Source: an uncultured virus (IMG/VR IMGVR_UViG_3300033069_000905)
Lineage: Duplodnaviria; Heunggongvirae; Uroviricota; Caudoviricetes
IMG/VR virus record: IMGVR_UViG_3300033069_000905
Location: 111,954-131,953 of that record
DNA length: 20,000 nt
Reading direction: 5' to 3' (one strand)
The position numbers and the translations under genes were made by a program. Below are positions 141-19,827 of this stretch, one piece after another (the stretch's first letter is position 1; the number at the start of each line of letters is the position of its first letter). The notes beneath the pieces are model-generated. The model was not told the DNA's origin and did not search any database. It worked only from the letters and a program-made list of their open reading frames with translations.

Positions 141-983
141 TCAGAACCCCCAAACGTTGCCTTTTACCTTGACCGGGGTTACGCTACATGTCTGTACGTA
201 CCCATCCGAGCCGTGACCCTTTGTTGACTTTGCAATAACAGAGTGCCCCTTCTGTAAACCTGACGAAGAAAAGTCTAGCTCCCTGTTCGCATAAAAACCC
301 TTATCCACACCCAACGCGGAGTAATACTTATCTTCGTACTCACCGTACCGTGCCGCTATGGGGTAAGTTTTTGACGGGGCAACCTTGTCGATACCAAAGT
401 GCTTGTTGAGCCAATCAATCTGCTTTTGACTCTCTACCGCTTTTTTGCAGTAGTTTGTTCGCACGTACTCAATGGCGTTTTTGTTGCCCGTCATGTGCAT
501 AACCAGAGCAGCCAGCACCGTACCCGTTCTTCCGTGTCCGCCAATGCACCCCAAGTGCACCTTCTTCCCTGATTTCAAGGCGTCTTCAAGATAGCCCAGC
601 AGCTTCCTGAATTCAACGATGTTGTCAGGAACACCGCTGTCTACGATATGGAATTCGAAGGCGATACGACCAGACCACGGATAGATTTTGAACTGTTCCA
701 TGCTCCGCTCAAAGCCCACGTAAACATCGGCGTCTTTAACCACGGGGTCTAAACATGACCCACCGTAAATTTTGTAGTCACCTATTGCCAACGCGGGGTG
801 GCTGTGTGCACACTTCGGGAGAGTTGATTTAGTCACGCGCACAGGTGCTTTCGTTTTGCTGGTGCTGAACGTAGCTTTGGCGTCATTGAAAGGTATGACT
901 TTTCCTTTTGATGAGCCAGTACGACTCGCCAAAGCAAGGTCTTTTGCTTTCTTCCAAGAATCCCAATCCATCGGCTTGTTCAT
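141..983 (-). CDS. CX5R protein-tyrosine/dual-specificity phosphatase superfamily protein
   Basis: VHLGCIGGHGRTG P-loop, upstream IVDSGVP acid loop, downstream AIEYVR...AVESQKQ (Q-loop-like); low-complexity extensions at both ends. Confidence 0.85.
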   Translation of the reverse strand: MNKPMDWDSWKKAKDLALASRTGSSKGKVIPFNDAKATFSTSKTKAPVRVTKSTLPKCAHSHPALAIGDYKIYGGSCLDPVVKDADVYVGFERSMEQFKIYPWSGRIAFEFHIVDSGVPDNIVEFRKLLGYLEDALKSGKKVHLGCIGGHGRTGTVLAALVMHMTGNKNAIEYVRTNYCKKAVESQKQIDWLNKHFGIDKVAPSKTYPIAARYGEYEDKYYSALGVDKGFYANRELDFSSSGLQKGHSVIAKSTKGHGSDGYVQTCSVTPVKVKGNVWGF

Positions 984-1957
984 GCCGCACTCCGTTCAAT
1001 CACAGAAGCATACGATTTGGGCGTGACATAAATTTGTTTCTTCGCATACGCCTTAGAATACGCCCCGTGTGCTGCTACCTGTTTAGCTTTTTCACTTGGA
1101 TAATCACCCAAAGCGCCTAGCGCCTCTACCTTGAACCAATCAACATAAAGCGGGTCTGGGCAAGGCAAACAGGCATCAATAGCCGACAAAGCATCATGCA
1201 GAGCGTGCGTACAGTTACCAAGTTCACCGTTAGCTACGTACTCCCTAATCTGCCCCGAGCGCTGCACGTCAAGAATCTTCAGCAACTCTTTTGTGTAGTG
1301 GTCGTAGAGCATGCCCTTGTTGAACATCGGGCCGTTGTTGTGTGCAAGCGACCACGACAAGTCATTCATCAATTCCAGAGAAATTTCACCGAAAACGACT
1401 TTCCTCAGAACTTCAGCGATTTCAGCCCACGGCTTCCCACCAAAGTTGTTTGGGTTGCCCCACTTCTTGAACACGTCAACAATCCCCGCCACGTACTCGC
1501 CCAAAGACACACCGCTGAGCGTAGACGCGCAGCCATCTTTCATGTAATCCGCCGCTGTACTTGACGAGGCGTTACTTTTTAGCCCCTTGATGAACTCAGT
1601 GATCTTGTACTGCGGGTCAAGCTTAGCAATACAGTGTGAAGGGGCGTGCCTAGCTTCGCGTGTAATAATGGTAAGGATGTAGTAGAACAGGCGAGCAGAA
1701 CTTTCAGACGCTTTTTTCAGATACAACCGAGCCAAGGCGTCCGCTTCTTCGGACAGATTTTCTTTTTTGTCGAATTGTGAACCCAGACGGCCAAAAGCGT
1801 CGTTGAGAAGATAGAAAAGAATCGCTTCTTCTTCAACACCGACTGACGTATTCGCCTTGAGGTATTTTGAGAGTTGCTGTGCCGTAGACACCAGTGGAGT
1901 CCCACTAACGTCTTGCTGCTTGAATAGCAACGCCTTTTTGTAATGCTCTAAATTCAT
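980..1957 (-). CDS. hypothetical protein, 325 aa, mostly helical
   Basis: Long ORF with CGGAGTG RBS before ATG 1957, its own promoter and an ATGA overlap with the phosphatase gene; motif-like segments FGGKPW and LAHNNGPMFNKG; family not recognised. Confidence 0.8.
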   Translation of the reverse strand: MNLEHYKKALLFKQQDVSGTPLVSTAQQLSKYLKANTSVGVEEEAILFYLLNDAFGRLGSQFDKKENLSEEADALARLYLKKASESSARLFYYILTIITREARHAPSHCIAKLDPQYKITEFIKGLKSNASSSTAADYMKDGCASTLSGVSLGEYVAGIVDVFKKWGNPNNFGGKPWAEIAEVLRKVVFGEISLELMNDLSWSLAHNNGPMFNKGMLYDHYTKELLKILDVQRSGQIREYVANGELGNCTHALHDALSAIDACLPCPDPLYVDWFKVEALGALGDYPSEKAKQVAAHGAYSKAYAKKQIYVTPKSYASVIERSAA

Positions 1958-1985
1958 AATCACTCCGTTGATTCAGTATTGCTTG

Positions 1986-2014
1986 AGGATACTACACTGC
2001 CATAAGTTTGTCAA
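1986..2014 (-). promoter_or_regulatory. sigma70-type promoter
   Basis: TTGACA-17 bp-TATCCT, overlapping the stop codon of the upstream gene. Confidence 0.8.
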
Positions 2015-2460
2015 TAGAACAATGCAATTACTTTCGCCACTTCCAACGTCACCTTGGTTTTTAGGCTAGGGCTATAGTCCGTCACTAGCGCTTGTTGTTC
2101 TTTCGTTTCAATGGCGTGGCTCTTGTAGTTGTCTCGCACGTATTGAACGGCTTTTTCTTCGCCAAGCAGAGTCATCAGCGCACCAAAGAACAGGCCAGTC
2201 CGACCAATACCCCCCATGCACCCGACATACATCGGTTTTTTGCGTGCGATTGGGATAAGCGCTTGCCTGATCCCGCGATCCAAATCTTCTTTATCCGGCA
2301 CAGAAAAATCTTCTGTGGGGATGTCGATATTGCAAGGATGATTAATCTCTTTTGCCATCTTCACGCCGAAAAAACCATCAGGCTTGACACGGTAAGGGCC
2401 ACCCACAATCCTGCGGGGTGATCCACCAAAAGAGAAATCAAAATTTTGTACAGCAGACAT
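2011..2460 (-). CDS. minimal CX5R protein-tyrosine/dual-specificity phosphatase
   Basis: YVGCMGGIGRTG P-loop, IPTEDFSVP acid loop, AVQYVR...AIETKEQ. Confidence 0.85.
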   Translation of the reverse strand: MSAVQNFDFSFGGSPRRIVGGPYRVKPDGFFGVKMAKEINHPCNIDIPTEDFSVPDKEDLDRGIRQALIPIARKKPMYVGCMGGIGRTGLFFGALMTLLGEEKAVQYVRDNYKSHAIETKEQQALVTDYSPSLKTKVTLEVAKVIALFY

Positions 2461-2832
2461 TTATCGCCCTTTCGTCTTGCACTCTTGGCAAGGTATAGTG
2501 TTTCGTATTTCATTTGTCCCGTGGCACTTACGACAGTTCTTGTCTTTACCACAACAGTCACAATCGTCTATCACGAGAATCCGTTTTGTGTCATTGCAGA
2601 ATGCACAACGCACATATTGTTTATGAGTATATACCTGTGGTTCTGGTTTGTCAAGCACTTCAACGTGCGGCTTGTGCCTAACTACACCCCGCAAGTACCC
2701 ACGACCTTCTGTACGCACGTCTGTACGCCCATCAATCCGTTTTCTTCGCGGTGTGTGCGGAGTAACAACCGTTGGTGTGGTGGGTGCGGCCTCAACCGGC
2801 GAAGGCTTACTGGTACTGTAGCGTACTGTCAA
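2461..2832 (-). CDS. Cys-rich zinc-finger protein (DnaJ-CR-like CxxC repeats)
   Basis: CAFC, CDCC, CRKCHG and CQEC in the C-terminal half; start uncertain (TTG 2832 chosen to limit overlap). Confidence 0.55.
   Translation of the reverse strand: MTVRYSTSKPSPVEAAPTTPTVVTPHTPRRKRIDGRTDVRTEGRGYLRGVVRHKPHVEVLDKPEPQVYTHKQYVRCAFCNDTKRILVIDDCDCCGKDKNCRKCHGTNEIRNTIPCQECKTKGR
2626..2654 (-). promoter_or_regulatory. sigma70-type promoter (intragenic, upstream of the small phosphatase gene)
   Basis: TTGACA-17 bp-TATACT with the same TTGACAAAC context as the intergenic promoters. Confidence 0.7.
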
Positions 2833-3115
2833 CTCGTTTGTCTCGATTGTTGTCGCGTAGGATGACGACAGAACGTGGGGCGCTGATAAGTATGTGGGCT
2901 TGTGTTCTGGTCTTCTCGTGGTCAGGAAGCCCAACGCCTACATAAACATCGGGGATGACCTCAATGTAATCCACCGCATCAAGCACGAACTCAGTGCCCC
3001 TCACAGACACCACCATCTCATCTTTACGAGGGGATATATACACGACAGTCAACGGAGTGTCCCCAAGGTAAATCACCCTACCCTCAGACACCCCCAAAGA
3101 TAATCCTTTACCCAT
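2807..3115 (-). CDS. CsrA/RsmA-like RNA-binding protein (divergent, with internal insertion)
   Basis: N-term LSLGVSEGRVIYLGD resembles CsrA LILTRRVGETLMIGD; C-term AHILISAPRSVVILR resembles VRIGIxAPKxVxxHR. Confidence 0.55.
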   Translation of the reverse strand: MGKGLSLGVSEGRVIYLGDTPLTVVYISPRKDEMVVSVRGTEFVLDAVDYIEVIPDVYVGVGLPDHEKTRTQAHILISAPRSVVILRDNNRDKRVDSTLQYQ

Positions 3116-3116
3116 A

Positions 3117-3524
3117 TTAACGCCCCATCAATCGTTTAGCTGTGTCCGTGGTGATCCAAGTGCTGCCGCCGACGATGCCGCGCTTGTAGTCGGTTATTTC
3201 AACAAGACCCTTGTATCTGAGAATAGTAAGTTGTGATGCCACATCCGAACTGGTCTGTGCAACTTCCGCGCTTTGGTTAACCAGTTCAGTAACATGCTTG
3301 GTGCTTGCGGGTTCAATGGCAAATAACGCGCCCAAGGCACACAAAAGTTTTGTTCCGCGTCTTGGTAGAGTGACTTCTTCTTCGATGTCAATATGGTCAG
3401 TCTGACTACCATCCGCATACTTCGATTGAACCAGTTTTAGAAAACCACAAAAGCATTTTAGAAAAACGCCCGTGTGGTCTTCGATATACCGCGCAGAAAC
3501 GCTACAGCACTTAGGACACTCCAT
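3117..3524 (-). CDS. Zn-ribbon plus winged-HTH putative transcription regulator
   Basis: CPKC...CFCG followed by the wHTH pattern STKHVTELV...SSDVASQLTILRYKGLVE...GGSTW; start may lie up to 75 bp further upstream. Confidence 0.65.
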   Translation of the reverse strand: MECPKCCSVSARYIEDHTGVFLKCFCGFLKLVQSKYADGSQTDHIDIEEEVTLPRRGTKLLCALGALFAIEPASTKHVTELVNQSAEVAQTSSDVASQLTILRYKGLVEITDYKRGIVGGSTWITTDTAKRLMGR

Positions 3525-3595
3525 GTCAATCCCCCCGCAGAACTCCACGGGGTTAAATTGTACGAAGTTATTTGAATTGTAAATAGTCATGTTAA

Positions 3596-5710
3596 TCAAG
3601 CACTCAGAAGGGACTTCAAAACAACGTCTTCAGAAGCAACCAACTTCTGATAAGAAACAACTGAAGGAACGCTATCCCCTGCAATCACTAGCTCCGTGAG
3701 GGGTTCGCCAGAAAAGCCTTTCAATTCAAGCACTTTACCCACGGCATCCTTTTTATTCGCCAAACCGTCGCCAAACTTCACGGTTCCTTTGGCGAAAAGC
3801 AAATCTTCGACAGAATTGACTTCTTCGATCAAAGAAAAACCAACATCCGTCAGCTTGCTTTTTAGCTTGTGGGTTACGCTAAAAAAGCCAAGATCAATCG
3901 CCACAGGCTTCGTCGGCTTAGCTTCAGCCAGACTGTCCAGCTTGCTTCTTGACACCTTTTTGTAGTCGAACAGTTCAAACAACTCAAACAGCGGCTTGTC
4001 ATATTCAACAACCGATTCGACTGACGTAGCGATAGAAATGATCCCTTCAAAGTCGTTAGCAACATGCTTCAGATGGTCGGGGTTCTTATCAAACTCACGT
4101 GTGTCAAGATAGCCGTAAGTACCCGATGTAACCAGCGGCACGAAAGAAACTTCACCGTGTACCCACGCAGATAACGTACTCAGTTCGGTATTGCTATCAG
4201 CCGCAATTATCGGAACATCGCTACCAACCCAAATGTTGCCCGTATCACCCTCAATCGTGATCTTGGTTTCACCTTCCGCGATGTAAGCACCGTTCAACGC
4301 CCAATAGTCGCCCCCCGAAACAGTCTTTCCCTGAGTCAAGTCAAGGCAACCGACCACGCAAACCTTGTCCATCCCGCGAGCCACCACCGCAGCGTGTGAG
4401 GATGATCCCCCTGTTTGGGTAAGAATCCCCACAGCCGCATTCATCCCTGCGATGTCATCAGGAGTGGTTTCCTTGGACAGCAGAATAACACTTTTTGTCT
4501 TCGCCAGTTCAACAGCTTTTTCCGATGAGAACACCGCCACGCCCGTAGCAAAACCCGTTGACGCAGCCAGTCCTTTACCCGTAGGGGCAATAGAAAACGA
4601 AGGATCAATCACAGGGCGACTTGCCATGAGGTATTGATCATACGAAATACGCGAGAATGCCGTCTTACGATCAATCACGCCCTCAAACACCAAGTCAACC
4701 GCCACCTTAACCGCAGCTTTTGCCGTGCGCTTGGCATTACGAGTTTGCAGGATAAACAGTTCACCGTCTTGAATAGTGAATTCAATATCTTGCATGTCGG
4801 CAAACGACTTTTCAAGCTTGTCAGCCGTTAGAATCAACTGTGCGAAGCTGTCAGTATTCCATTCAAGCATCGACTCTATCGGCAAAGGTGTACGCACACC
4901 AGAAACCACGTCTTCGCCCTGAGCGTTAACAAGGTACTCACCAACCGCCTTATTTTCGCCTGTAGCGGGGTTACGAGAAAAGAGAACACCCGTAGCTGAC
5001 TTGTCGTTCATGTTACCGAAAACCATTGCCTGAATAATACAAGCAGTCCCCAAGTCATGCGGAATCTTGTTCAGGTTACGATAGGTAATCGCACGGTCGG
5101 TATTCCACGAACCGTAAACCGCCTTGATTGCCCGACGCAATTGCATTTTGAACGTCTGTGGGAAGTCTGGCGTGATGCCAAGGAAAAGTTCGCAGATTAC
5201 TTTAAGGGATTGAACCGACAGTTCGGCGTCCGTAGAAACTTTCTCTACTTCTTTAACGTCATCCAGAATCGCTTCGTACTTGCTGGAAGAAATATTGAAC
5301 ACCACCGAACCGAACATCTGAATCAGACGACGATACGAGTCCCAAGCCGCACGTTCACCGATGCGCTTTTCCCACGCTTTAATCGTGGTTGAAGTCAGGC
5401 CAACGTTTAGGATTGTTTCGCACATGCCGGGGCAGCTAACCTTAGCGCCCGAACGAACAGAGAAAAGTGGCAGATAGCCAAACTTCTTTTCGATTTCATC
5501 AATGTAAGTATAGGCTTGCAGGGCAAGTGCCGCAGTGGACTCCGTACCCGCGTTGATACCCGCACAAAGCGTAGTGGGGAGAATGATTGCCGGGGGGACA
5601 TTGATCCCCAGACCAGCCATTTTCAAAAGGTTAAGCCCTTTACCCCCAAGAACGTCGATAGACGCTTCCGAAGGGGAACCAAAACCTACAGGGTAAAATT
5701 CAGCACTCAT
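3596..5710 (-). CDS. ppdK: pyruvate phosphate dikinase-like protein: ATP-grasp and phospho-His swivel domains, non-canonical C-terminus
   Basis: LGGKG, SVRSGA, QAMVFGN, NAQGEDVVSG, DIEF, LQTR and GGSSSHAAVVARG motifs; no PEP/pyruvate-barrel motifs; CGGAGTG RBS before ATG 5710. Confidence 0.9.
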   Translation of the reverse strand: MSAEFYPVGFGSPSEASIDVLGGKGLNLLKMAGLGINVPPAIILPTTLCAGINAGTESTAALALQAYTYIDEIEKKFGYLPLFSVRSGAKVSCPGMCETILNVGLTSTTIKAWEKRIGERAAWDSYRRLIQMFGSVVFNISSSKYEAILDDVKEVEKVSTDAELSVQSLKVICELFLGITPDFPQTFKMQLRRAIKAVYGSWNTDRAITYRNLNKIPHDLGTACIIQAMVFGNMNDKSATGVLFSRNPATGENKAVGEYLVNAQGEDVVSGVRTPLPIESMLEWNTDSFAQLILTADKLEKSFADMQDIEFTIQDGELFILQTRNAKRTAKAAVKVAVDLVFEGVIDRKTAFSRISYDQYLMASRPVIDPSFSIAPTGKGLAASTGFATGVAVFSSEKAVELAKTKSVILLSKETTPDDIAGMNAAVGILTQTGGSSSHAAVVARGMDKVCVVGCLDLTQGKTVSGGDYWALNGAYIAEGETKITIEGDTGNIWVGSDVPIIAADSNTELSTLSAWVHGEVSFVPLVTSGTYGYLDTREFDKNPDHLKHVANDFEGIISIATSVESVVEYDKPLFELFELFDYKKVSRSKLDSLAEAKPTKPVAIDLGFFSVTHKLKSKLTDVGFSLIEEVNSVEDLLFAKGTVKFGDGLANKKDAVGKVLELKGFSGEPLTELVIAGDSVPSVVSYQKLVASEDVVLKSLLSA

Positions 5711-5728
5711 AAACACTCCGTTGTTTTG

Positions 5729-5744
5729 TTGCAAGTAATTTCAA
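5729..5744. promoter_or_regulatory. recurrent operator-like motif TTGCAAGTAATTTCAA, copy 1
   Basis: Lies between the promoter and RBS of the dikinase gene; repeated at 9741, 13294 and 16906. Confidence 0.6.
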
Positions 5745-5751
5745 TAGCCCA

Positions 5752-5780
5752 AGTATAGCGCCCTGTTCTTGTTTTGTCAA
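5752..5780 (-). promoter_or_regulatory. sigma70-type promoter of the dikinase operon
   Basis: TTGACA-17 bp-TATACT. Confidence 0.85.
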
Positions 5781-5959
5781 GCTATATCAAGTGCATCGTG
5801 CACAGCTATCAGGAACCCCACAGAATCCACATCGGGGATCACGCCGTTTAGCAGTTCATCGCGTGTGCCCTCTAGCTCTTGGCGATCTATTTCTTCAAGG
5901 GGAGACTCCAATACAGACATCACCTTGCCTAGCAAGGATTCTACCTCACCTGCTTCCAT
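5777..5959 (-). CDS. small acidic hypothetical protein
   Basis: Fills the gap between the kinase gene and the promoter; overlaps the upstream stop. Confidence 0.6.
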   Translation of the reverse strand: MEAGEVESLLGKVMSVLESPLEEIDRQELEGTRDELLNGVIPDVDSVGFLIAVHDALDIA

Positions 5960-6500
5960 ATCTATCCTGTGTATGCCTGAAAAATTCAGCTAAGTATATG
6001 CCCATGCGTTGTTTTGTTCCACTGTTGTCATAGGTCGCGTCAACTTCAAACTCTTGTGTTTCGCTGGCATGGGATGATCCGGGAACGTCTTCTTCCTGCG
6101 GTCGGGTGACCCGTAGCAGTACACCATTGTTGTTACGTATCCAATTCGCTTCGTCGGGGAAACGCACGTCATCAAACACCACCGTCATGTGTTCTCTGAC
6201 CTTCCCTACGGCAAGTTTTGCTCTACGTACCCAGAAATCTTGTCCGAAGTTTTGACGCATACATTCGGTTCCTAGCTTCTGTAGCATTTCCCGCCTTGTA
6301 ATCCCCCAATAGGGATCAACTGCGCTTTTTCCTTGCGAGAAGTCTTCTGGCTTCAATCCAAAGAGGGAACACGCAGCCTCTTTCAACGGTGTGGCAAAGG
6401 ATAGCTTGCACACGAAAAACTGGCGAACCAGTTCATCAGCCGCAGTCGTCTTTCCCGCCCCCATTGCCCCCGCAATACCAATAATTATCCGCTTTGCCAT
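5946..6500 (-). CDS. deoxynucleoside monophosphate kinase (T4 gp1-like)
   Basis: P-loop GAMGAGKTT, SFATPLKE, REMLQKLGTE, FWV, DDVRFPDEA, HASE. Confidence 0.92.
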   Translation of the reverse strand: MAKRIIIGIAGAMGAGKTTAADELVRQFFVCKLSFATPLKEAACSLFGLKPEDFSQGKSAVDPYWGITRREMLQKLGTECMRQNFGQDFWVRRAKLAVGKVREHMTVVFDDVRFPDEANWIRNNNGVLLRVTRPQEEDVPGSSHASETQEFEVDATYDNSGTKQRMGIYLAEFFRHTQDRYGSR

Positions 6501-6536
6501 ACTAGAAACCCCTCAGTGCACAATATTAGAAGCTTA

Positions 6537-6737
6537 CTACGAAGAGACACTACATTTGTTAGTTGCTTGGCACGCGGGACAAGCCAATAGCTCTTTTCCG
6601 TCTTTTTTAAGATACTCCCACTCCACCCCTCTCGGCGGGAGTACAACAGGGTCGCTGTACGGGGATGTTTCTTCGCTCGTGGACTCAACAAAGCCGCATA
6701 CTTCGCACACCCATACATTTGTTTGATACACCGACAT
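6537..6737 (-). CDS. small zinc-binding hypothetical protein
   Basis: CEVC...W...CPAC; in register with its neighbours. Confidence 0.6.
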   Translation of the reverse strand: MSVYQTNVWVCEVCGFVESTSEETSPYSDPVVLPPRGVEWEYLKKDGKELLACPACQATNKCSVSS

Positions 6738-6740
6738 GCT

Positions 6741-7223
6741 TTATTTCCTAGCGCTAGTGTAGGCTTTTGCCGATTCTTTCATCCTGTCAAAAGATTCCCC
6801 ATCACGGCACACCACAAAACTGGAATACCGCTGTACGGCTTTCGTCATGCGAATGTTGCCTATGCCAATGTAAGTAGAATCAGACAGGATGATCAGCGAA
6901 CTGGGTTGGGCTTCACCCAACTTGTGCGACTCTACACCATGCAGGACTGTGTTGGAGTACACCTTCACGCGCTTTCCGAAAGCCGCCTTGTCTTCTAATA
7001 ATTTGATGAAGGCTGGTTCTTCCACCACGGACGAAATAACTTCAATACGAATGCGTGTAGACGCCACTAACTGATACACCGCACGCAGAGCATCCTGCCC
7101 TGTATAAACACGACACTCATCACCCTCGAACAAAGGCGTGTTGTTTTGCAAATCCAATGTGATTGGGTCTGCCTTAACCAGACTACTGAAGATCAGCAGC
7201 AATAGAAGCCATGTACGCATCAT
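6741..7223 (-). CDS. exported protein with degenerate PLD/Nuc-like fold
   Basis: Signal peptide MMRTWLLLLLIFSSLVKA; pattern resembles Nuc-type PLD but HxK is absent. Confidence 0.55.
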   Translation of the reverse strand: MMRTWLLLLLIFSSLVKADPITLDLQNNTPLFEGDECRVYTGQDALRAVYQLVASTRIRIEVISSVVEEPAFIKLLEDKAAFGKRVKVYSNTVLHGVESHKLGEAQPSSLIILSDSTYIGIGNIRMTKAVQRYSSFVVCRDGESFDRMKESAKAYTSARK

Positions 7224-7380
7224 ACCCCTCGTCTTTCTTAATTATGTTAGCCACAGTGCCTTCGCTCACACGGCACACCCTAGCAATCTCAGCTTGCTTC
7301 ATTTCCGAACCGTAGTACCAACGATTGACGAAAAAGCACAGTTCTTCGCGTGTTCCATATCGCCCCGTTGTTTTTATCAT
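7183..7380 (-). CDS. small HTH DNA-binding protein
   Basis: MKQAEIARVCRVSEGTVANII helix-turn-helix; start overlaps the upstream stop. Confidence 0.7.
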   Translation of the reverse strand: MIKTTGRYGTREELCFFVNRWYYGSEMKQAEIARVCRVSEGTVANIIKKDEGYDAYMASIAADLQ

Positions 7381-7733
7381 AGCCCCACAAACCTCATGTT
7401 GCACAGGGAACTACAAAAAGCGTAGTTGCTGTCAAAGCGTGCTTCAGCTTCTTTCATTTTCTTACCGCACTCAGCGCACTTGACAACACCATCAAAAGGA
7501 ACGTACTCACCCAAGCCCTTTGATGGAAACTGGTTTTTGGTGGGATCATAAATCTCACCGTTCGGCCTAACCGTCCACCAGTGCGGTTCGTTTGTATTCC
7601 AGATGGGGCAGAAGTAGTGCCCACGAACCAAAGTCAAAGAAGGATCAGCCACACACGCAGCATCGCAAAGCTGTTTGCACTTCCCACGATACTTAATGTA
7701 GTCCGATGCGGTTATTTCTGTATGTATTGACAT
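7377..7733 (-). CDS. hypothetical protein with C-terminal Zn finger
   Basis: C...HWW...IYDPT (transglutaminase/papain-like pattern, tentative) followed by CAEC...CSSLC. Confidence 0.7.
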   Translation of the reverse strand: MSIHTEITASDYIKYRGKCKQLCDAACVADPSLTLVRGHYFCPIWNTNEPHWWTVRPNGEIYDPTKNQFPSKGLGEYVPFDGVVKCAECGKKMKEAEARFDSNYAFCSSLCNMRFVGL

Positions 7734-7738
7734 AGTGA

Positions 7739-7930
7739 TTACCCACGAGAGTAGGCTACGGCTGGCAGCGCTTCGTGAGTCCACGTACCCCAAAACAAAT
7801 CCCCGCGCAGTATAAAATCAGGGGCGTCAAGATTATCACCACAAGCCACCGATGCGTAGTGGAAACCACGAAACACGGGGTTAAATTTTGCAGGGCTGGT
7901 TGGGTACGCCGTTGTTGTGTACGGTGTCAT
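7739..7930 (-). CDS. small hypothetical protein
   Basis: First ORF after the promoter at 7988-8016. Confidence 0.45.
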   Translation of the reverse strand: MTPYTTTAYPTSPAKFNPVFRGFHYASVACGDNLDAPDFILRGDLFWGTWTHEALPAVAYSRG

Positions 7931-7987
7931 ATTTATACCTATGTATAGTCGAATATAGTTACAACTTAGTATAACTGTGTATAGGCT

Positions 7988-8016
7988 ATTATCACACGAT
8001 ACGCACAGTTTGTCAA
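7988..8016 (-). promoter_or_regulatory. sigma70-type promoter
   Basis: TTGACA-17 bp-GATAAT. Confidence 0.75.
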
Positions 8017-8483
8017 GAGTTAGGCAAGTAAATCCACTCTCGCCCTGCGGCTAACCATAAATCCATAGACGCACTGTGAGGGTACTGCTCAGCAAAAACG
8101 ATGCGCTTACACCCTGTCCCCAACAATGACTTAACGCAGCGAATACAAGGGGATGCAGTAACGTAAGCTGTGTATATTTTCCTTACGTTTTTACAATACA
8201 GCAAGGCGTTATCCTCTGCATGAAGGGCTTCACAGCCATCCAAGTTCGTACCTGAAGGGGCAAATGCCGCAGAACAGGCATGGGGATAAACCGCACCTAT
8301 CTCGTGGCTAACTGTGTCGCAGTTAGGCAAACCCGCAGCTTTCCCATTGTACCCTGTCGACATGATTCTGTTATGCTTGGTTACGATGACACAACCCACC
8401 TTACGCCGCAGACAACTCCCCCGTGCAGCTACGTCTTTGGCAATCTGCATAAAATACTCATCCCACGAGGGTCTAGTTTCCAT
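8013..8483 (-). CDS. dCMP deaminase (ComEB-like)
   Basis: RPSWDEYFM, RRKVGCVI, TGYNG, HAE and SPCIRC zinc-deaminase motifs. Confidence 0.93.
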   Translation of the reverse strand: METRPSWDEYFMQIAKDVAARGSCLRRKVGCVIVTKHNRIMSTGYNGKAAGLPNCDTVSHEIGAVYPHACSAAFAPSGTNLDGCEALHAEDNALLYCKNVRKIYTAYVTASPCIRCVKSLLGTGCKRIVFAEQYPHSASMDLWLAAGREWIYLPNS

Positions 8484-8859
8484 TTTTAATCCTTTTGTCT
8501 CGTTGAACAAACAACTCAGTGATCCCATCTATAGCCGCGTTGTAGTCATCAACCCACTTCGCTGAATCAACCTTCCTCCACGGCTTAGCCGCACGTTTAA
8601 CAGCACACCACGCATAGCCCGCTGTCTTCGGCCACTTCTTCACCGCTTCGATATACAAGTCCAAGTCTTCTGCGGCTAAGTTCTCCGCATCAGCCCCCGG
8701 CACAAAAATATCGTTGCAATTAATTGCAGGATAGGCACCGTCGTCCCACGTTTCTTTTATGCTGTTGTAGCTGGTCAGGAAAATCTGATCTTCCACCAGC
8801 AACCAGAAAATCTTGCGTGCCGTTTCAAGTTCTGTGGTCAATACGTTCAACTCAGACAT
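8473..8859 (-). CDS. hypothetical protein
   Basis: ORF overlapping both neighbours in operon fashion. Confidence 0.75.
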   Translation of the reverse strand: MSELNVLTTELETARKIFWLLVEDQIFLTSYNSIKETWDDGAYPAINCNDIFVPGADAENLAAEDLDLYIEAVKKWPKTAGYAWCAVKRAAKPWRKVDSAKWVDDYNAAIDGITELFVQRDKRIKNGN

Positions 8860-15109: not shown

Positions 15110-15675
15110 TTTCTTCTTCCCACTTCAAACGCAGCACGCAAAACGGCGTGTGCTTCATCACCAAGGTCAGGGTCAGCGTCATCACCTTCTTCATGCCAGA
15201 ATTCTTGGATCAAAGTTCTGTCGGGAAGACGCTTCCATACGCACTGGTCAGGAAAATCAATGTTCAAGCGCAAGGTTTTGATCAACTCGTAGCGATCCCC
15301 CAAGTTCTTCAGCGGATTCCATACATCCCCATTGATCAGCATCATACCGTCGACGGGGAACTTTTTGTTCTCCTGTACGTAGATATAATCCATGGCAATC
15401 GCAGCCGCTTCTAATAGTTCACGATCCGTCACTTGCAATCCTTTCTTATTGTGGGCATCAATGTCGGTATTGCTTGGTCTGCAAGGTGTATAAGGTACAA
15501 ACTCGTAGCGTCTTCCAGCGTCATCAGCCGCTAGGCGTAGTGCATCTTCCGCGCTTATGATTTGCCAGTCCCCCCATGTATTCGGGCCATTCTCGTGACC
15601 ATCAGGAAATCCAAGGTTGTAGACTCGCCACAACCATTGATCATACAGTGGCGTAGTTTCACGATCCGTCATCAT
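15106..15675 (-). CDS. hypothetical protein, probable in-frame fusion of two small genes
   Basis: GGAG RBS before ATG 15675/15672; internal AAGGA plus GTG start at 15432 (VTDRELLEAAA). Confidence 0.65.
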   Translation of the reverse strand: MMTDRETTPLYDQWLWRVYNLGFPDGHENGPNTWGDWQIISAEDALRLAADDAGRRYEFVPYTPCRPSNTDIDAHNKKGLQVTDRELLEAAAIAMDYIYVQENKKFPVDGMMLINGDVWNPLKNLGDRYELIKTLRLNIDFPDQCVWKRLPDRTLIQEFWHEEGDDADPDLGDEAHAVLRAAFEVGRRK

Positions 15676-16021
15676 CACTCCATAGTTTATGGACGTACAC
15701 ACGCAAGCCCCTACGTCTGGCACTATCAATCATCCCCTTGGTGCCTTTGCTGTCCCCATCCCACAATGCAATCAGGGCTTCAGCGTGCTTTGACATTTCA
15801 TCATTCCTGATATGCCCTGCCCTTTTTCCATAGCGTTCCCAATTCGCAGGGAACTGCTCGCACGGAACACCGAACTCCATCGCCCATGCTTCGCCCATCT
15901 GATCCACACCACGGGCAGTTCCGCTGATGACTACCGTGGGCGTCCAGCCACATAGCTTCAACGCCCGTAGCAGTTCCCTCTTGTCGTAGCATCCACGGCT
16001 ACCCGCGATGATTGTTCTCAT
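15659..16021 (-). CDS. SLOG-superfamily protein (YspA/DUF2493-like)
   Basis: IIAGSR, VVISGTARGVD, FPANWERYGKRAGHIRN, ALWDGDSKGT. Confidence 0.88.
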   Translation of the reverse strand: MRTIIAGSRGCYDKRELLRALKLCGWTPTVVISGTARGVDQMGEAWAMEFGVPCEQFPANWERYGKRAGHIRNDEMSKHAEALIALWDGDSKGTKGMIDSARRRGLRVYVHKLWSDDDGS

Positions 16022-16725: not shown

Positions 16726-16986
16726 TTAAATAGTATGGACGACCAGCTTAGATACACGGTTGTTATCGGAGTGTGGCTTGTACTCGCACATCTCCCCGTC
16801 CCAAAATTCGTTGGCGATAGCCGCTTCAGCGTCTTGTTCAAAGACGATAGACCCGCCCGTGCGATGACTGACCACCTTGATAAACTCAGGGAAACCGCCC
16901 GAAAGGAAATTACTTGCAAGCGTCAACACGCCTGTTTCCTTGTAGTAAGTACAATCCTTTAGACTGACTTGTTGCAGATGATCCAT
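16726..16986 (-). CDS. hypothetical protein
   Basis: GGAGG RBS directly after a promoter. Confidence 0.8.
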   Translation of the reverse strand: MDHLQQVSLKDCTYYKETGVLTLASNFLSGGFPEFIKVVSHRTGGSIVFEQDAEAAIANEFWDGEMCEYKPHSDNNRVSKLVVHTI

Positions 16987-17009
16987 ATAACCTCCGTGTT
17001 AGAAACTAC

Positions 17010-17038
17010 ATGCTACAACAATCAGAACGGTTTGTCAA
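17010..17038 (-). promoter_or_regulatory. sigma70-type promoter
   Basis: TTGACA-17 bp-TAGCAT. Confidence 0.7.
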
Positions 17039-17255
17039 GGCGTGCCACCCATTTTAGGCAAACAGCCGTGCACGATACGGGAAAGTAAATGTCGGGGTTC
17101 CTTCCGCACCTGTTGCGCTCCGTCAGGCTCACCCTGTCAGGGTCTGCTATGAAATACGTACAGTCAGAGCACTGTGGAGTTTTTTCCTTGTAGCCGTTCT
17201 TCACCTTCAAGTGTTCCAACACGTTCAAAGAGACACCTTCAAGACTTATTGACAT
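17022..17255 (-). CDS. small Cys-rich hypothetical protein
   Basis: CSDCTYF...C...CLKW; GGAGA RBS before ATG 17255. Confidence 0.7.
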   Translation of the reverse strand: MSISLEGVSLNVLEHLKVKNGYKEKTPQCSDCTYFIADPDRVSLTERNRCGRNPDIYFPVSCTAVCLKWVARLDKPF

Positions 17256-17341
17256 AGCTTTCTCCAACCTTCAGGTAAAGTACAGTTCTTGGGGGATTTT
17301 TTGAACATCGGTGCGATTTGTTCGTCGGAATACCCGGCCAC
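17246..17341 (-). pseudogene. displaced C-terminal fragment of the macro-like gene (VAGYSDEQIAPMFKKSPKNCTLPEGWRKLCQ*)
   Basis: Manual translation; aligns without gaps, 10/27 identical, to LANLCDSAVAPLFSSASENCFFDEFWR of ORF 17970-18356. Confidence 0.8.
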
Positions 17342-17346
17342 TCAGG

Positions 17347-17973
17347 CTAAAAATTTAACTTGTGCGGCCAGTTATTTGTTTTTATGAAGTCGTCCCTTGC
17401 AATAGCTGCTTCAAGTTCTGTATCAAACGTCCCGACGTAGTACGCTACACCACTACGCTTTATGGAAGCCTCCCACTTACTTCCTCTTAAAGATACACCT
17501 AAGTATTTTGAAGACGTGTTCGCTGCTTTTCTTTGGTTTGCGGCTTGAGTGTTCCAATCAGACCACTTGCAGTTATCAGGTTCGTAATTACCTTCTACAT
17601 GTATTCTATCAATTGTTAGTTCATCTGTGTATCCCGCTTTAATCGCCCACTCTCTAAAAACAGCAAAATTGTCCCAAGTGTGCGCGTAAGTAATGCCCAA
17701 CGCACCATAATTCTTATAGTCTGTTGCTTTTGTGTCGGTGCAGCGTCTTCGCATGTTTATCCACGTTTGATATAGCCTTGTTTTTTTACCCCCGTGTGTG
17801 GTTACTGCATCCCTGTTGGCGCAACCGCAGGATGTTGTTATTCCCGTCCTTAAGGACGACGCTCGCACTTTTGTTAAGTTTCCACAGACGCATAAGCACT
17901 CCCATTTAAGGTGCCTGTCTGTTTTAGCTGCCGGTGCTACTACCGTAAGCCTTCCGAATGTTTTTCCTATCAT
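17347..17973 (-). CDS. HNH homing endonuclease with C-terminal AP2 domain
   Basis: GKTFGRLTV...CLCVCG...SCGC; TIDRI...GNYEPDNCKW...QAAN; SKYLGV...KWEASI...GTFDTELEAA. Confidence 0.9.
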   Translation of the reverse strand: MIGKTFGRLTVVAPAAKTDRHLKWECLCVCGNLTKVRASSLRTGITTSCGCANRDAVTTHGGKKTRLYQTWINMRRRCTDTKATDYKNYGALGITYAHTWDNFAVFREWAIKAGYTDELTIDRIHVEGNYEPDNCKWSDWNTQAANQRKAANTSSKYLGVSLRGSKWEASIKRSGVAYYVGTFDTELEAAIARDDFIKTNNWPHKLNF

Positions 17974-18356
17974 GCGTAGGTGCCCCAATAATTTTTAGAA
18001 TCGCCTAAGTAGGTTCTCCAAAACTCGTCAAAAAAGCAGTTTTCTGATGCGCTAGAAAATAGGGGCGCTACCGCGCTATCACATAAATTTGCGAGTCCGC
18101 AGCCTACCCGCGTGACATTAAACTCAAGGTCGGGGTTAGCTTTGGCATACTCAACAAAGCCGTCCACGTACTGCTTGATAACGGTCAGGGGGAGCGTCCT
18201 CAGTCGTCCGTCTTTAGTGGGGATAGCATAGGCATTACCTGTTCTACCCACGCCAACGCCGTATACAGCCCCGTAGTTAAGCTTGGCGTAGAGTGCTGCA
18301 CCCTTACCATGACGGCCATCAAAATTGCTCCCGAATACAAAGCACCTACTTGTCAT
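17970..18356 (-). CDS. A1S_2505-family phage protein (macrodomain-like)
   Basis: FVFGSNxxGRHGKGAA, AYAIPTK and FNVTRVGCGLA motifs. Confidence 0.8.
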   Translation of the reverse strand: MTSRCFVFGSNFDGRHGKGAALYAKLNYGAVYGVGVGRTGNAYAIPTKDGRLRTLPLTVIKQYVDGFVEYAKANPDLEFNVTRVGCGLANLCDSAVAPLFSSASENCFFDEFWRTYLGDSKNYWGTYA

Positions 18357-18999
18357 TGCATTTAAACCTCTGTTTTGATGTATTTATTGGCGTCATAATG
18401 GAATCTTCTAGCGTCATACCTGTCCTACGACGTTCTTTTACTAAACCGTACCTGATCCCTTTTATACGGCACCACTCGCCAATTGAGTGTGTCTCATCAC
18501 CCATCACTACACGGGCTGTGTGTGATTGATTCTGTGCTTGTTCTAGCTTAGTTGCCCACCTACAATTACTAGGCTCGTAGCCTTTAGCGTTGTCATTACG
18601 TTCAATCGTGTGCTTATGCGGTCGCTCTCCCATGTCTGCCAAGAAATTAGTGAACCCATCATCACCAGACCATCTATCGCACACTTTAACATGGGCGTAC
18701 CGTGGGTTAACTATAACCCGTTGGTGCATCGCTTGCCATGAACGATAGGCACCTGATTGGGCACCACGAATAGCATTAGAATGCTTAGTGTTCTTGGCAG
18801 CAACAAGTTCAGACCTATAACAACCACACGATGTTATGTTTAAAAACCTAACCCAATTGACGGTAGCCTCAATCACAGTCCCGCAAGAGCATAGAAACAC
18901 GGCTTGACGACGGTTTTTATACGAAGGTAGTTCATACTGGTACGTTAGCCTAGTGTTGGGAATCAAATCCCCCTTTTTATAGATAATGCGTGCTGGCAT
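18346..18999 (-). CDS. HNH homing endonuclease
   Basis: CSCG...TSCGC; YRSWQAMHQR, VCDRW, FLADMGERP, TIERNDNAKGYEPSNCRWAT..EQAQN. Confidence 0.9.
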   Translation of the reverse strand: MPARIIYKKGDLIPNTRLTYQYELPSYKNRRQAVFLCSCGTVIEATVNWVRFLNITSCGCYRSELVAAKNTKHSNAIRGAQSGAYRSWQAMHQRVIVNPRYAHVKVCDRWSGDDGFTNFLADMGERPHKHTIERNDNAKGYEPSNCRWATKLEQAQNQSHTARVVMGDETHSIGEWCRIKGIRYGLVKERRRTGMTLEDSIMTPINTSKQRFKCNDK

Positions 19000-19031
19000 G
19001 TGCAAACTAATCCGTGTTTGGAAACCTAGCT

Positions 19032-19061
19032 ACTATACACCCAAAGACAAATAAGAAGCAA
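19032..19061 (-). promoter_or_regulatory. putative promoter of the HNH cassette
   Basis: TTGCTT-18 bp-TATAGT immediately inside the inferred insertion boundary. Confidence 0.45.
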
Positions 19062-19064
19062 CGG

Positions 19065-19148
19065 CTAATTGCTCCCGAACACAAAAATTCTGTCTGACAC
19101 CGAGTTTTCAATAGCACACGATAGCGCTTTAACGTCATCAGCGTCCAT
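19065..19148 (-). pseudogene. displaced N-terminal fragment of the macro-like gene (MDADDVKALSCAIENSVSDRIFVFGSN*)
   Basis: ATG overlaps the upstream TGA; ends in FVFGSN-TAG; 18/19 nt identical to 18323-18341. Confidence 0.8.
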
Positions 19149-19399
19149 CAGTTTTTAAACTCCGGTTTTTCTGTAGGATTCTTGGCGTCTTTCCATAGCG
19201 TAACGTAGTTCGGTTGTAGTACAGAACCGTCATCCTTGAGCACGCAATTTGTTACGCTAAACGGCCACCATCTCTCGGCATTCCACATGCCCCACACATC
19301 TTTTCGGGCAATGGCTAAGGTAATGTCGCTATCGTAGTCTTTCAACCAAACCAGCCGACCACGCGACAGGAAGCACCACACACGTTTTATTAGATTCAT
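19148..19399 (-). CDS. Trp-rich hypothetical protein
   Basis: In operon register with its neighbours. Confidence 0.65.
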   Translation of the reverse strand: MNLIKRVWCFLSRGRLVWLKDYDSDITLAIARKDVWGMWNAERWWPFSVTNCVLKDDGSVLQPNYVTLWKDAKNPTEKPEFKN

Positions 19400-19401
19400 A
19401 A

Positions 19402-19827
19402 TCAGTCATACCCACTCGAATATTTGTCTTCGTCCCCAACATCGTCCCCGATAGGGTTAGGGAAGCCGTACTTCACTGCTGTAGCCTTGAACAATGGAAG
19501 ACCGTACTGAGCGTAGTCCTCGAAGCCTTCAAGCCCTTCTTCGAGAATCCAGTTCCACATTTCAACGACTTCGTACATCAAGCCAGCACTGATCCCCCGC
19601 TTGTTGAGCGCCTTTTCAAAACCGAACTCAACGTCATCCTTCAACTGTGCAAGGACATTTTCCCGCGTGAAATCAAGTGCAACGTGCTTGCCGACGAATT
19701 CAGGTTTCAGTTCCAGACCGAACGAAGCCAGTTCAAACTCGGGGATGAACTGACACAGACGCGCCATGTCCCGACCACCCAGCGTTTCTGACTTGTACTG
19801 CAATCTGATTTGTTCAAGTGTTTTCAT
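19402..19827 (-). CDS. hypothetical phage protein
   Basis: AAGGA RBS; 141 aa. Confidence 0.8.
   Translation of the reverse strand: MKTLEQIRLQYKSETLGGRDMARLCQFIPEFELASFGLELKPEFVGKHVALDFTRENVLAQLKDDVEFGFEKALNKRGISAGLMYEVVEMWNWILEEGLEGFEDYAQYGLPLFKATAVKYGFPNPIGDDVGDEDKYSSGYD

Follow-up and report, generated by a model that had tools for sequence, protein, structure and literature searches.

A layout in which a nuclease gene separates a full-length gene from a displaced copy of one of its ends is known from yeast and from fungal mitochondrial genes. In yeast, WHO elements replace the 3' end of FBA1 and strand the old end, and allele-specific cleavage was demonstrated for WHO6 (Coughlan et al. 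2020, PMC7282813; available part of the article). In fungal mitochondria, C-terminal duplications of atp6 and cob are flanked by GIY-YIG or LAGLIDADG open reading frames (ORFs); the available part of that source (PMC6279837) describes the duplications and does not test a mechanism. For phages, the review of T4-like endonucleases by Edgell et al. 2010 (PMC2988022, available part), citing Parker et al. 1999, describes one-sided homing in T4, in which the break is repaired illegitimately and homology is present on one side only. The same part of that review lists genes that have been split into two working pieces, namely nrdA of Aeh1 by mobE, gene 60 by mobA, and gene 43 by seg.

Here we describe a locus in which both ends of one 128-codon phage gene appear to have been affected. 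The window, i.e., the whole stretch of 20,000 nucleotides (nt) that was analysed, is the final 20 kb (positions 111,954 to 131,953) of the 132-kb IMG/VR virus record IMGVR_UViG_3300033069_000905, which comes from an uncultured, Ackermannviridae-like environmental phage. The gene is an A1S_2505 / N4 gp14-like macrodomain gene; it lies between two nuclease genes, here called HNH-1 and HNH-2, beyond which stand an orphan start and an orphan end of the same gene family. We consider it probable that this arrangement arose through two separate and independent homing events, each of which brought in a nuclease gene together with the donor's gene end and displaced the old end.

The locus resembles WHO/FBA1 in several respects. 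In both, a full-length target stands next to the nuclease gene and carries a divergent allele at the end facing it, the old end has been displaced to a place immediately past the nuclease gene, no splicing is involved, and the target is a chimera with discordant parts, as far as the available part of PMC7282813 describes the yeast case. The WHO proteins differ in being intein-like LAGLIDADG/zinc-finger fusions of a eukaryote, acting at the 3' end only according to the same text; the present nucleases belong to a PHROG family labelled 'HNH', the target is a 128-codon phage gene, both ends are affected, and cleavage is something we infer. The mitochondrial atp6 and cob cases are alike in that endonuclease ORFs lie between the full gene and a duplicated C-terminal fragment, and unlike in the organelle genome, the other nuclease families, and the lack of any both-ends case in the available part of PMC6279837. 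T4-like free-standing homing endonucleases share with this locus a nuclease gene between genes, a target in a conserved neighbour, and flanks that are co-converted; in the T4-like examples the gene is split, whereas here it remains complete and only its former ends are cast aside (PMC2988022, available part).

What is particular to this locus is the both-ended case in a single small phage gene. It is also particular that the ordinary intergenic home of one nuclease lineage is identified in another phage family, and that uninterrupted and donor-type alleles are both present among metagenomic proteins. No description of phage gene-end replacement beside a homing endonuclease was found in the literature searched, the coverage of which is incomplete, with most subscription journals outside it. 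Among mitochondrial genes, Allomyces atp6 is reportedly a similar mobile-ORF case.

Layout of the locus

A preliminary description of this DNA had placed five elements (orphan start, HNH-1, intact gene, HNH-2, and orphan end) on the minus strand, and both the sequence and the reading frames agree with it in every position. In order of transcription, the features are as follows.

19148..19399, minus strand: upstream gene of unknown function, 83 codons, TGA stop
19065..19148, minus strand: orphan start, 27 codons, with the FVFGSN motif at its end, followed by TAG
19067..19085, minus strand: repeat copy A, encoding FVFGSN plus one base; left junction of the HNH-1 insertion
19000..19064, minus strand: spacer between orphan start and HNH-1, 65 nt
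18346..18999, minus strand: HNH-1, free-standing homing-endonuclease-type gene, 217 amino acids (aa) counted from the ATG at 18999
18323..18341, minus strand: repeat copy B, covering codons 6-11 of the intact gene and one further base
17970..18356, minus strand: intact chimeric A1S_2505 / N4 gp14-like macrodomain gene, 128 aa
17970..18092, minus strand: substitute 3' module, long type with YWGT tail, residues 89-128 of the intact gene's product
17347..17973, minus strand: HNH-2, free-standing nuclease gene, 208 aa, ATG at 17973
roughly 17350-17529, minus strand: AP2 DNA-binding domain of HNH-2, C-terminal ~60 residues
17342..17346, minus strand: spacer between HNH-2 and orphan end, 5 nt
17246..17341, minus strand: orphan end, 31 codons, short type, starting inside the GCGLAG motif
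17022..17255, minus strand: downstream gene, 77 codons, ATG at 17255

The orphan ends had been described as still coupled to the flanking genes, and they are. Upstream, the TGA of the 83-codon gene and the ATG of the orphan start have one base in common (TGATG). Downstream, the final 10 nt of the orphan end overlap the ATG of the 77-codon gene, for which a Shine-Dalgarno-like GGAGA, i.e., a ribosome-binding site, also lies inside the orphan end. A TGA stands immediately 5' of the orphan end in its frame. The macrodomain gene is in turn coupled in translation to the nuclease genes on either side: its first 11 nt are at the same time the last 11 nt of HNH-1, stop codon included, and its TGA is overlapped by the ATG of HNH-2 (ATGA). 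The likely start of HNH-1 is the ATG at 18999; the list of open reading frames gives a TTG at 19005, two codons earlier.

It is confirmed that this five-part layout is neither a product of chance nor an assembly artefact. A six-frame scan of the complete record (131,953 nt) finds the FVFGSN-type motif at two sites only, and its two copies form a 19-nt direct repeat (19085-19067 and 18341-18323) that is identical at 18/19 positions, differs at one base, and ends exactly where the orphan start stops. The closeness of the intact gene to the orphan repeat copy is matched by just one of 101 distinct family alleles. When used as the sole query, the orphan end retrieved the C-terminal part of the macrodomain family in 268 phage records (expect value, E, down to 5e-6). 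The stretch is present in 12 public sequencing runs from 6 studies. In one of them, a wastewater run from another study (X6), contigs match over 17132-17468, 17678-18996, and 18979-19257 with 0 differences, so every junction is covered and bridged independently of the original assembly; a second run (X5) covers 18426-19387.

Two further features of the layout may be mentioned here. A hairpin at 19054-19076 on the minus strand, followed by a T-rich run, spans the junction: some of its bases close the orphan start, and the others open the inserted DNA. Its stability (-11.2 kcal/mol, z -1.62) is not significant, as 13 of 200 shuffled sequences fold equally well, and as a terminator it was rejected, with 1 terminator-like site found versus 1.9 in shuffles; it could still damp read-through into HNH-1. 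The second direct repeat, 18 nt long and 83% identical, links 17082-17099 in the downstream gene with 18120-18137 in the intact gene and is probably due to chance.

Gene ends, nucleases and the macrodomain protein

A total of 3114 family proteins were found, and the comparisons with three of them, labelled P0010, P0012, and P0009, come from the best 120. P0010, a metagenomic protein of 118 aa, shares 25/26 residues with the intact gene product at positions 1-26 and 56/62 at positions 27-88. From the GCGLAG motif onward its affinity changes: 29/31 residues agree with the orphan end, and 10/40 with the intact gene. The end of P0012 likewise agrees with the orphan end at 27 of 31 residues. The P0010 core continues into an orphan-type end, and therefore an uninterrupted allele made of the core plus the orphan end exists, of which the orphan 3' end is the true end, as had been proposed. 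The preliminary description had gone further and expected a contiguous allele of orphan start, core, and orphan end; the part comprising core and orphan end is found in P0010 and P0012, and an allele with the orphan start is not.

The substitute end has its own counterpart in P0009 (128 aa), which agrees with it at 36/40 residues and with the start of the intact gene at 19/26. Between the orphan end and the substitute end there is no detectable DNA similarity, and they share 10/31 residues; for this reason the substitute end is a foreign allele rather than a local duplication. The GC content of the substitute module is 0.454, versus 0.516 for residues 1-93. In the four alleles compared here, the start and end modules occur in every one of the four possible pairings, which is the kind of discordance described for FBA1 under WHO homing. 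Judged by these comparisons, the intact gene is chimeric, its start and core being P0010-like and its end P0009-like, and a replacement event at the 3' end, where the orphan end lies 5 nt beyond HNH-2, is well supported at the sequence level.

At the 5' end, the evidence comes mainly from relatives of HNH-1. The closest are in the DNA of N4-like phages, i.e., IMG/VR contig L149 (63% identical), Xanthomonas phage RiverRider (59.6%), Pectobacterium phage CB1 (57.5%), and Stenotrophomonas phage C121 (52.1%), and in all four a macrodomain allele of the short-start type begins inside the end of the nuclease gene. This ties the HNH-1 lineage to the start of the macrodomain gene, in line with the preliminary description. 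No orphan fragment lies upstream in the three of these N4-like loci that were scanned for the motif. In Klebsiella phage GADU21, a relative of 46.8% identity lies ~1 kb downstream of the macrodomain gene, and the remaining relatives are at most 41% identical. In N4-like phages the HNH-1 lineage is, on this sequence evidence, an intergenic resident placed immediately before the macrodomain gene. In those phages the HNH-1-type gene precedes an ordinary short-start allele with no orphan, and thus the 'replacement' start at our locus would simply be the donor allele's own start. The idea that each endonuclease supplied a replacement gene end stands insofar as substitute ends lie beside both nucleases, and falls insofar as no special cargo has to be assumed to explain these ends.

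Between the orphan start and HNH-1 there are 65 nt, and what identifies the orphan start is solely its final ~9 residues together with its location and the 19-nt repeat. In the first family alignment (A1) it aligns with the family over the motif only, the two longest-start members matching at 10/22 and 13/23 residues. Extended N-terminal starts do occur in the family (P0116, P0078, P0083, and others). Since nothing matches outside the motif, a long-start origin is presumed, and the orphan start would be the stranded start of the allele that was resident before HNH-1 arrived. An event at the 5' end is supported on these grounds, at a lower level than the one at the 3' end.

Both nucleases match the PHROG family phrog_374 'HNH endonuclease', HNH-1 at E 1e-36 and HNH-2 at E 3e-67; PADLOC returned no match for either. 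Each has a separate frame and its own stop, and these frames differ from those of the gene fragments and are closed against them. Rfam gave no intron family at E up to 1 in 16800-19600. The absence of an intron or intein, as stated in the preliminary description, agrees with both results.

The model of HNH-2 has a predicted local distance difference test score (pLDDT) of 91 and comprises a cysteine-rich N-terminal part, a middle domain, and a C-terminal AP2 fold. The last superimposes on the AP2 domains of the plant proteins TEM1, ERF1, and WRI1 with a root-mean-square deviation (rmsd) of 1.5-2.5 Å over 54-59 residues at 31-38% identity. The Pfam AP2 score is 17.4 bits, under the cut-off of 33.3, and a Foldseek search with the model found the AP2 domain alone. 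The AP2 domain proposed earlier for HNH-2 is thus borne out by the fold of the model.

The proteins closest to HNH-2 are 63-69% identical, and its closest phage relatives, at ~40% identity, lie between RNA polymerase (RNAP) genes in N4-like phages. One such ~40%-identical relative (L149:4632-5315) adjoins N4-type RNA polymerase genes, and in Pectobacterium phage Possum (L147) another lies at 1483-2145 between the gene for the small RNAP subunit and an RNAP2-like gene. The RNAP genes are another target of the same nuclease family. Nucleases of this kind occur sporadically: HNH-like genes were present in 7 of 130 scanned loci (128 of which had been fetched by a match to the family gene, with some contigs counted twice), directly adjoined the macrodomain gene in 3 only, and did so in N4-like phages exclusively.

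The intact gene was described from the start as macro-like, and profile and fold searches support this. It matches NCBIfam NF049995 'A1S_2505 family phage non-structural protein' (E 5e-40, 136 bits versus a cut-off of 45) and phrog_2072 (E 5e-49). The best matches among deposited phages, namely N4-like and some jumbo phages, are 54-59% identical and are annotated 'N4 gp14-like' or 'macro domain'; neither PADLOC nor Pfam gave a match for the product. Its AlphaFold2 model, built with 46 family sequences, has a pLDDT of 95.2, and the top 10 Foldseek matches include the macrodomains of DarTG/DarG, TARG1, and Poa1p, with template modelling (TM) scores of 0.60-0.64, probability 1.00, and a best E of 4e-4. 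A macrodomain fold closest to that of DarG and TARG1 is supported by this model, the sequence identity to them being 15-19%.

The product retains 24/24 invariant columns of the second alignment (A2). Among the 46 family sequences, F6-N11 and G85-A89 are invariant or nearly so; both breakpoints had been said to fall in the most conserved stretches of the family, and these are the stretches in which they lie. The family profile aligns weakly with TARG1 (E 0.27-0.35), PTK corresponding to ITKK and GCGLA to GCGLD (TARG1 RIGCGLD), and the family position aligned with the Asp of the TARG1 GCGLD is an invariant Ala. In TARG1, residues of these motifs have catalytic roles. By analogy, the protein is predicted to remove adenosine diphosphate (ADP)-ribose, possibly in an anti-DarT role. 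The phage protein AdfM, which also has a macrodomain fold, removes DarT2 ADP-ribose from DNA (PMC13309987, available part).

Proposed history and competing explanations

In the history that we infer, covering cleavage and its position, the donors, and the order of events, the macrodomain gene would have been struck twice, each time by a free-standing homing-endonuclease gene, both nucleases coming from a single PHROG 'HNH' family. In the 5' event, a gene of the HNH-1 lineage would have been copied in with the donor's short start, leaving behind the longer resident start, severed right after the FVFGSN codons and the 19-nt repeat. In the 3' event, HNH-2 would have been copied in with the donor's long-type end, pushing the short-type resident end downstream, severed inside the GCGLAG codons. 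P0010 suggests that the 3' event came last.

As for the mechanism, the nuclease would cut or nick a naive allele in or near the conserved motif, and the ensuing repair would copy donor sequence, nuclease gene included. Homology on one side would come from the gene body; because donor and recipient share only the gene, the other junction would be made, at first insertion, by an illegitimate or microhomology join, i.e., by one-sided homing. Such repair would leave recipient sequence up to the break (the orphan) and donor sequence thereafter. Later on, the stranded end and the flanking genes may act as a second homology arm, as proposed for the yeast WHO elements. P0010-type and chimeric alleles should differ in their sensitivity to HNH-2. 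The preliminary description took the two repairs of one small gene to imply that the gene is under selection; this does not follow, because copying of the donor's end by itself restores the gene.

Several results weigh against this history. Pfam finds no HNH domain in HNH-1 or HNH-2. The sole fold support for a nuclease is the match of the HNH-2 middle domain to the restriction enzyme PacI, which is middling and below the level of a clear match (Z score 6.2, rmsd 2.6 Å, 74 residues). PacI itself is an HNH enzyme. No genome was found in which a relative of HNH-2 adjoins a macrodomain gene. The orphan start alone gave no match in tblastn, its first ~18 residues matching nothing.

Nor was a nuclease-free relative of the host phage retrieved: megablast against phages was empty, and IMG/VR searches with five different protein queries returned the same phage at 100% or non-syntenic contigs. 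In the JGI metagenomes the best match to P0010 was 72% and again no such relative appeared, and a contig search with the protein P0130 gave one match, which was irrelevant. Four sequencing runs containing 0.16-0.77 of the sequence words of the stretch yielded no joined nuclease-free form, although contigs so fragmentary and of such low depth cannot show absence.

The two-event history has to be set against a single event, in which a ready-made block of HNH-1, macrodomain gene, and HNH-2 from another phage would have replaced the middle of the resident gene by one illegitimate recombination and left both resident ends in place. The translational coupling of the three genes into one compact unit fits this, as does the fact that no intermediate was seen at the DNA level. 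However, P0010, which joins the start and core of the intact gene to an orphan-type end, is what would be expected of an intermediate preceding a separate, later 3' event. Under a single exchange, the orphan end and the intact core would also have separate gene origins, although each of them resembles P0010 (29/31 and 56/62), and the four HNH-1-bearing N4-like loci have the macrodomain gene without an HNH gene directly following it. We regard a single event as improbable.

Marginally less probable still is that the 3' event alone took place, HNH-1 having been inserted between genes as in N4-like phages, with the 27-codon orphan start as a chance or unrelated frame that happens to end in the motif. 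That frame indeed has no detectable homologue beyond its ~9 residues; but the six-residue motif is found nowhere else in the 132 kb apart from the intact gene, the match extends to the full repeat and ends exactly at the insertion junction, the ATG of the frame is coupled to the upstream gene, and long N-terminal extensions of the kind presumed are known in the family.

The remaining two explanations seem to us very improbable. Three tandem paralogues, two of them decayed to end fragments beside bystander nucleases, would account for three pieces with family similarity and nothing more. The fragments, however, complement each other as opposite gene ends, each breaking off precisely at a nuclease gene, the short spacers hold no trace of a decayed core, and the orphan end is still nearly identical to a living allele. 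Nuclease genes of this type often reside in group I introns (PMC2988022, available part), which might point to self-splicing introns or inteins and to fragments joined at the RNA or protein level. This fits poorly with the empty Rfam search, with nuclease genes that have frames and stops of their own, and with an intact gene that is complete alone, being confidently modelled and retaining all invariant residues. Two independent homing events thus remain the reading that we prefer.

Host phage, neighbouring genes and implications

The host phage is Ackermannviridae-like. A 141-codon gene at 19402-19827 has ~72% DNA identity to Ackermannviridae phages, e.g., Erwinia phage Bue1 and Klebsiella phage May, and among the matches listed in a distant blastn search of the stretch, those to Ackermannviridae are confined to this gene. 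A 178-kb IMG/VR contig shows 100% identity over the 5,850 bases compared. The neighbourhood is variable, since the genes downstream of the 141-codon gene differ among May, Bue1, and a 70%-identical IMG/VR contig, and those in May and Bue1 are unrelated. The 83-codon gene upstream of the locus belongs to no Pfam, PHROG, or NCBIfam family; in IMG/VR it has one confident match, to the same phage at 100%, and a second over 17 residues at 65%. The downstream 77-codon gene has no known family and matches only itself among 5.8 billion proteins, a weak hint that the genomic surroundings of P0010 are different ones.

The 132-kb record has three additional 'HNH' paralogues, at about 94242-94655, 105897-106391, and 107091-107681, with 27-37% identity to HNH-1 or HNH-2, which brings the number of genes from this family in the phage to at least five. 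The window also encodes, about 1.2 kb beyond the locus on its downstream side, a YspA-type SLOG protein (15659-16021, minus strand; PF10686, E 4e-13). Homologues of it, 47-53% identical, lie within ~1 kb upstream of a macrodomain gene in 8 IMG/VR loci (L035-L044), and in one case (L040:4605-5366) a single open frame of 254 codons runs from a SLOG domain directly into a macrodomain. Such proximity may point to a functional connection of SLOG and macrodomain proteins. At 141-8528 (minus strand), a series of nucleotide-metabolism genes carries the PHROG labels thymidylate-synthase-like, 712-aa 'kinase', deoxynucleoside monophosphate (dNMP) kinase, and deoxycytidine monophosphate (dCMP) deaminase; phages whose DNA bases are modified carry sets of this kind.

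This locus shows free-standing nuclease genes entering a gene without an intron or intein, the gene being kept working through the donor's end. It indicates that end-replacing events can cross the boundaries of phage families when the target gene alone is shared. Such events would explain mosaic alleles as well as small orphan frames that are annotated as hypothetical proteins.

A more speculative possibility, which we hold to be rather unlikely, is that the macrodomain gene and the two nuclease genes form one self-spreading counter-defence cassette, for which the two conserved motifs of the ADP-ribose pocket would be the sites of homing. Every phage that possesses the gene would then be convertible to the cassette's allele, even across families (N4-like to Ackermannviridae-like), and the stranded ends would provide homology arms. 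If this were true, selfish nucleases would drive both the horizontal spread and the allele turnover of a DarG/TARG1-like anti-ADP-ribosylation gene. A link between selfish nucleases and the spread of anti-defence genes has been raised for T-even phages in the available part of a 2026 paper on SegB (PMC13096335), and the present locus would tie selfish nucleases to the spread of an anti-defence gene as well, provided that the macrodomain protein does act in counter-defence.

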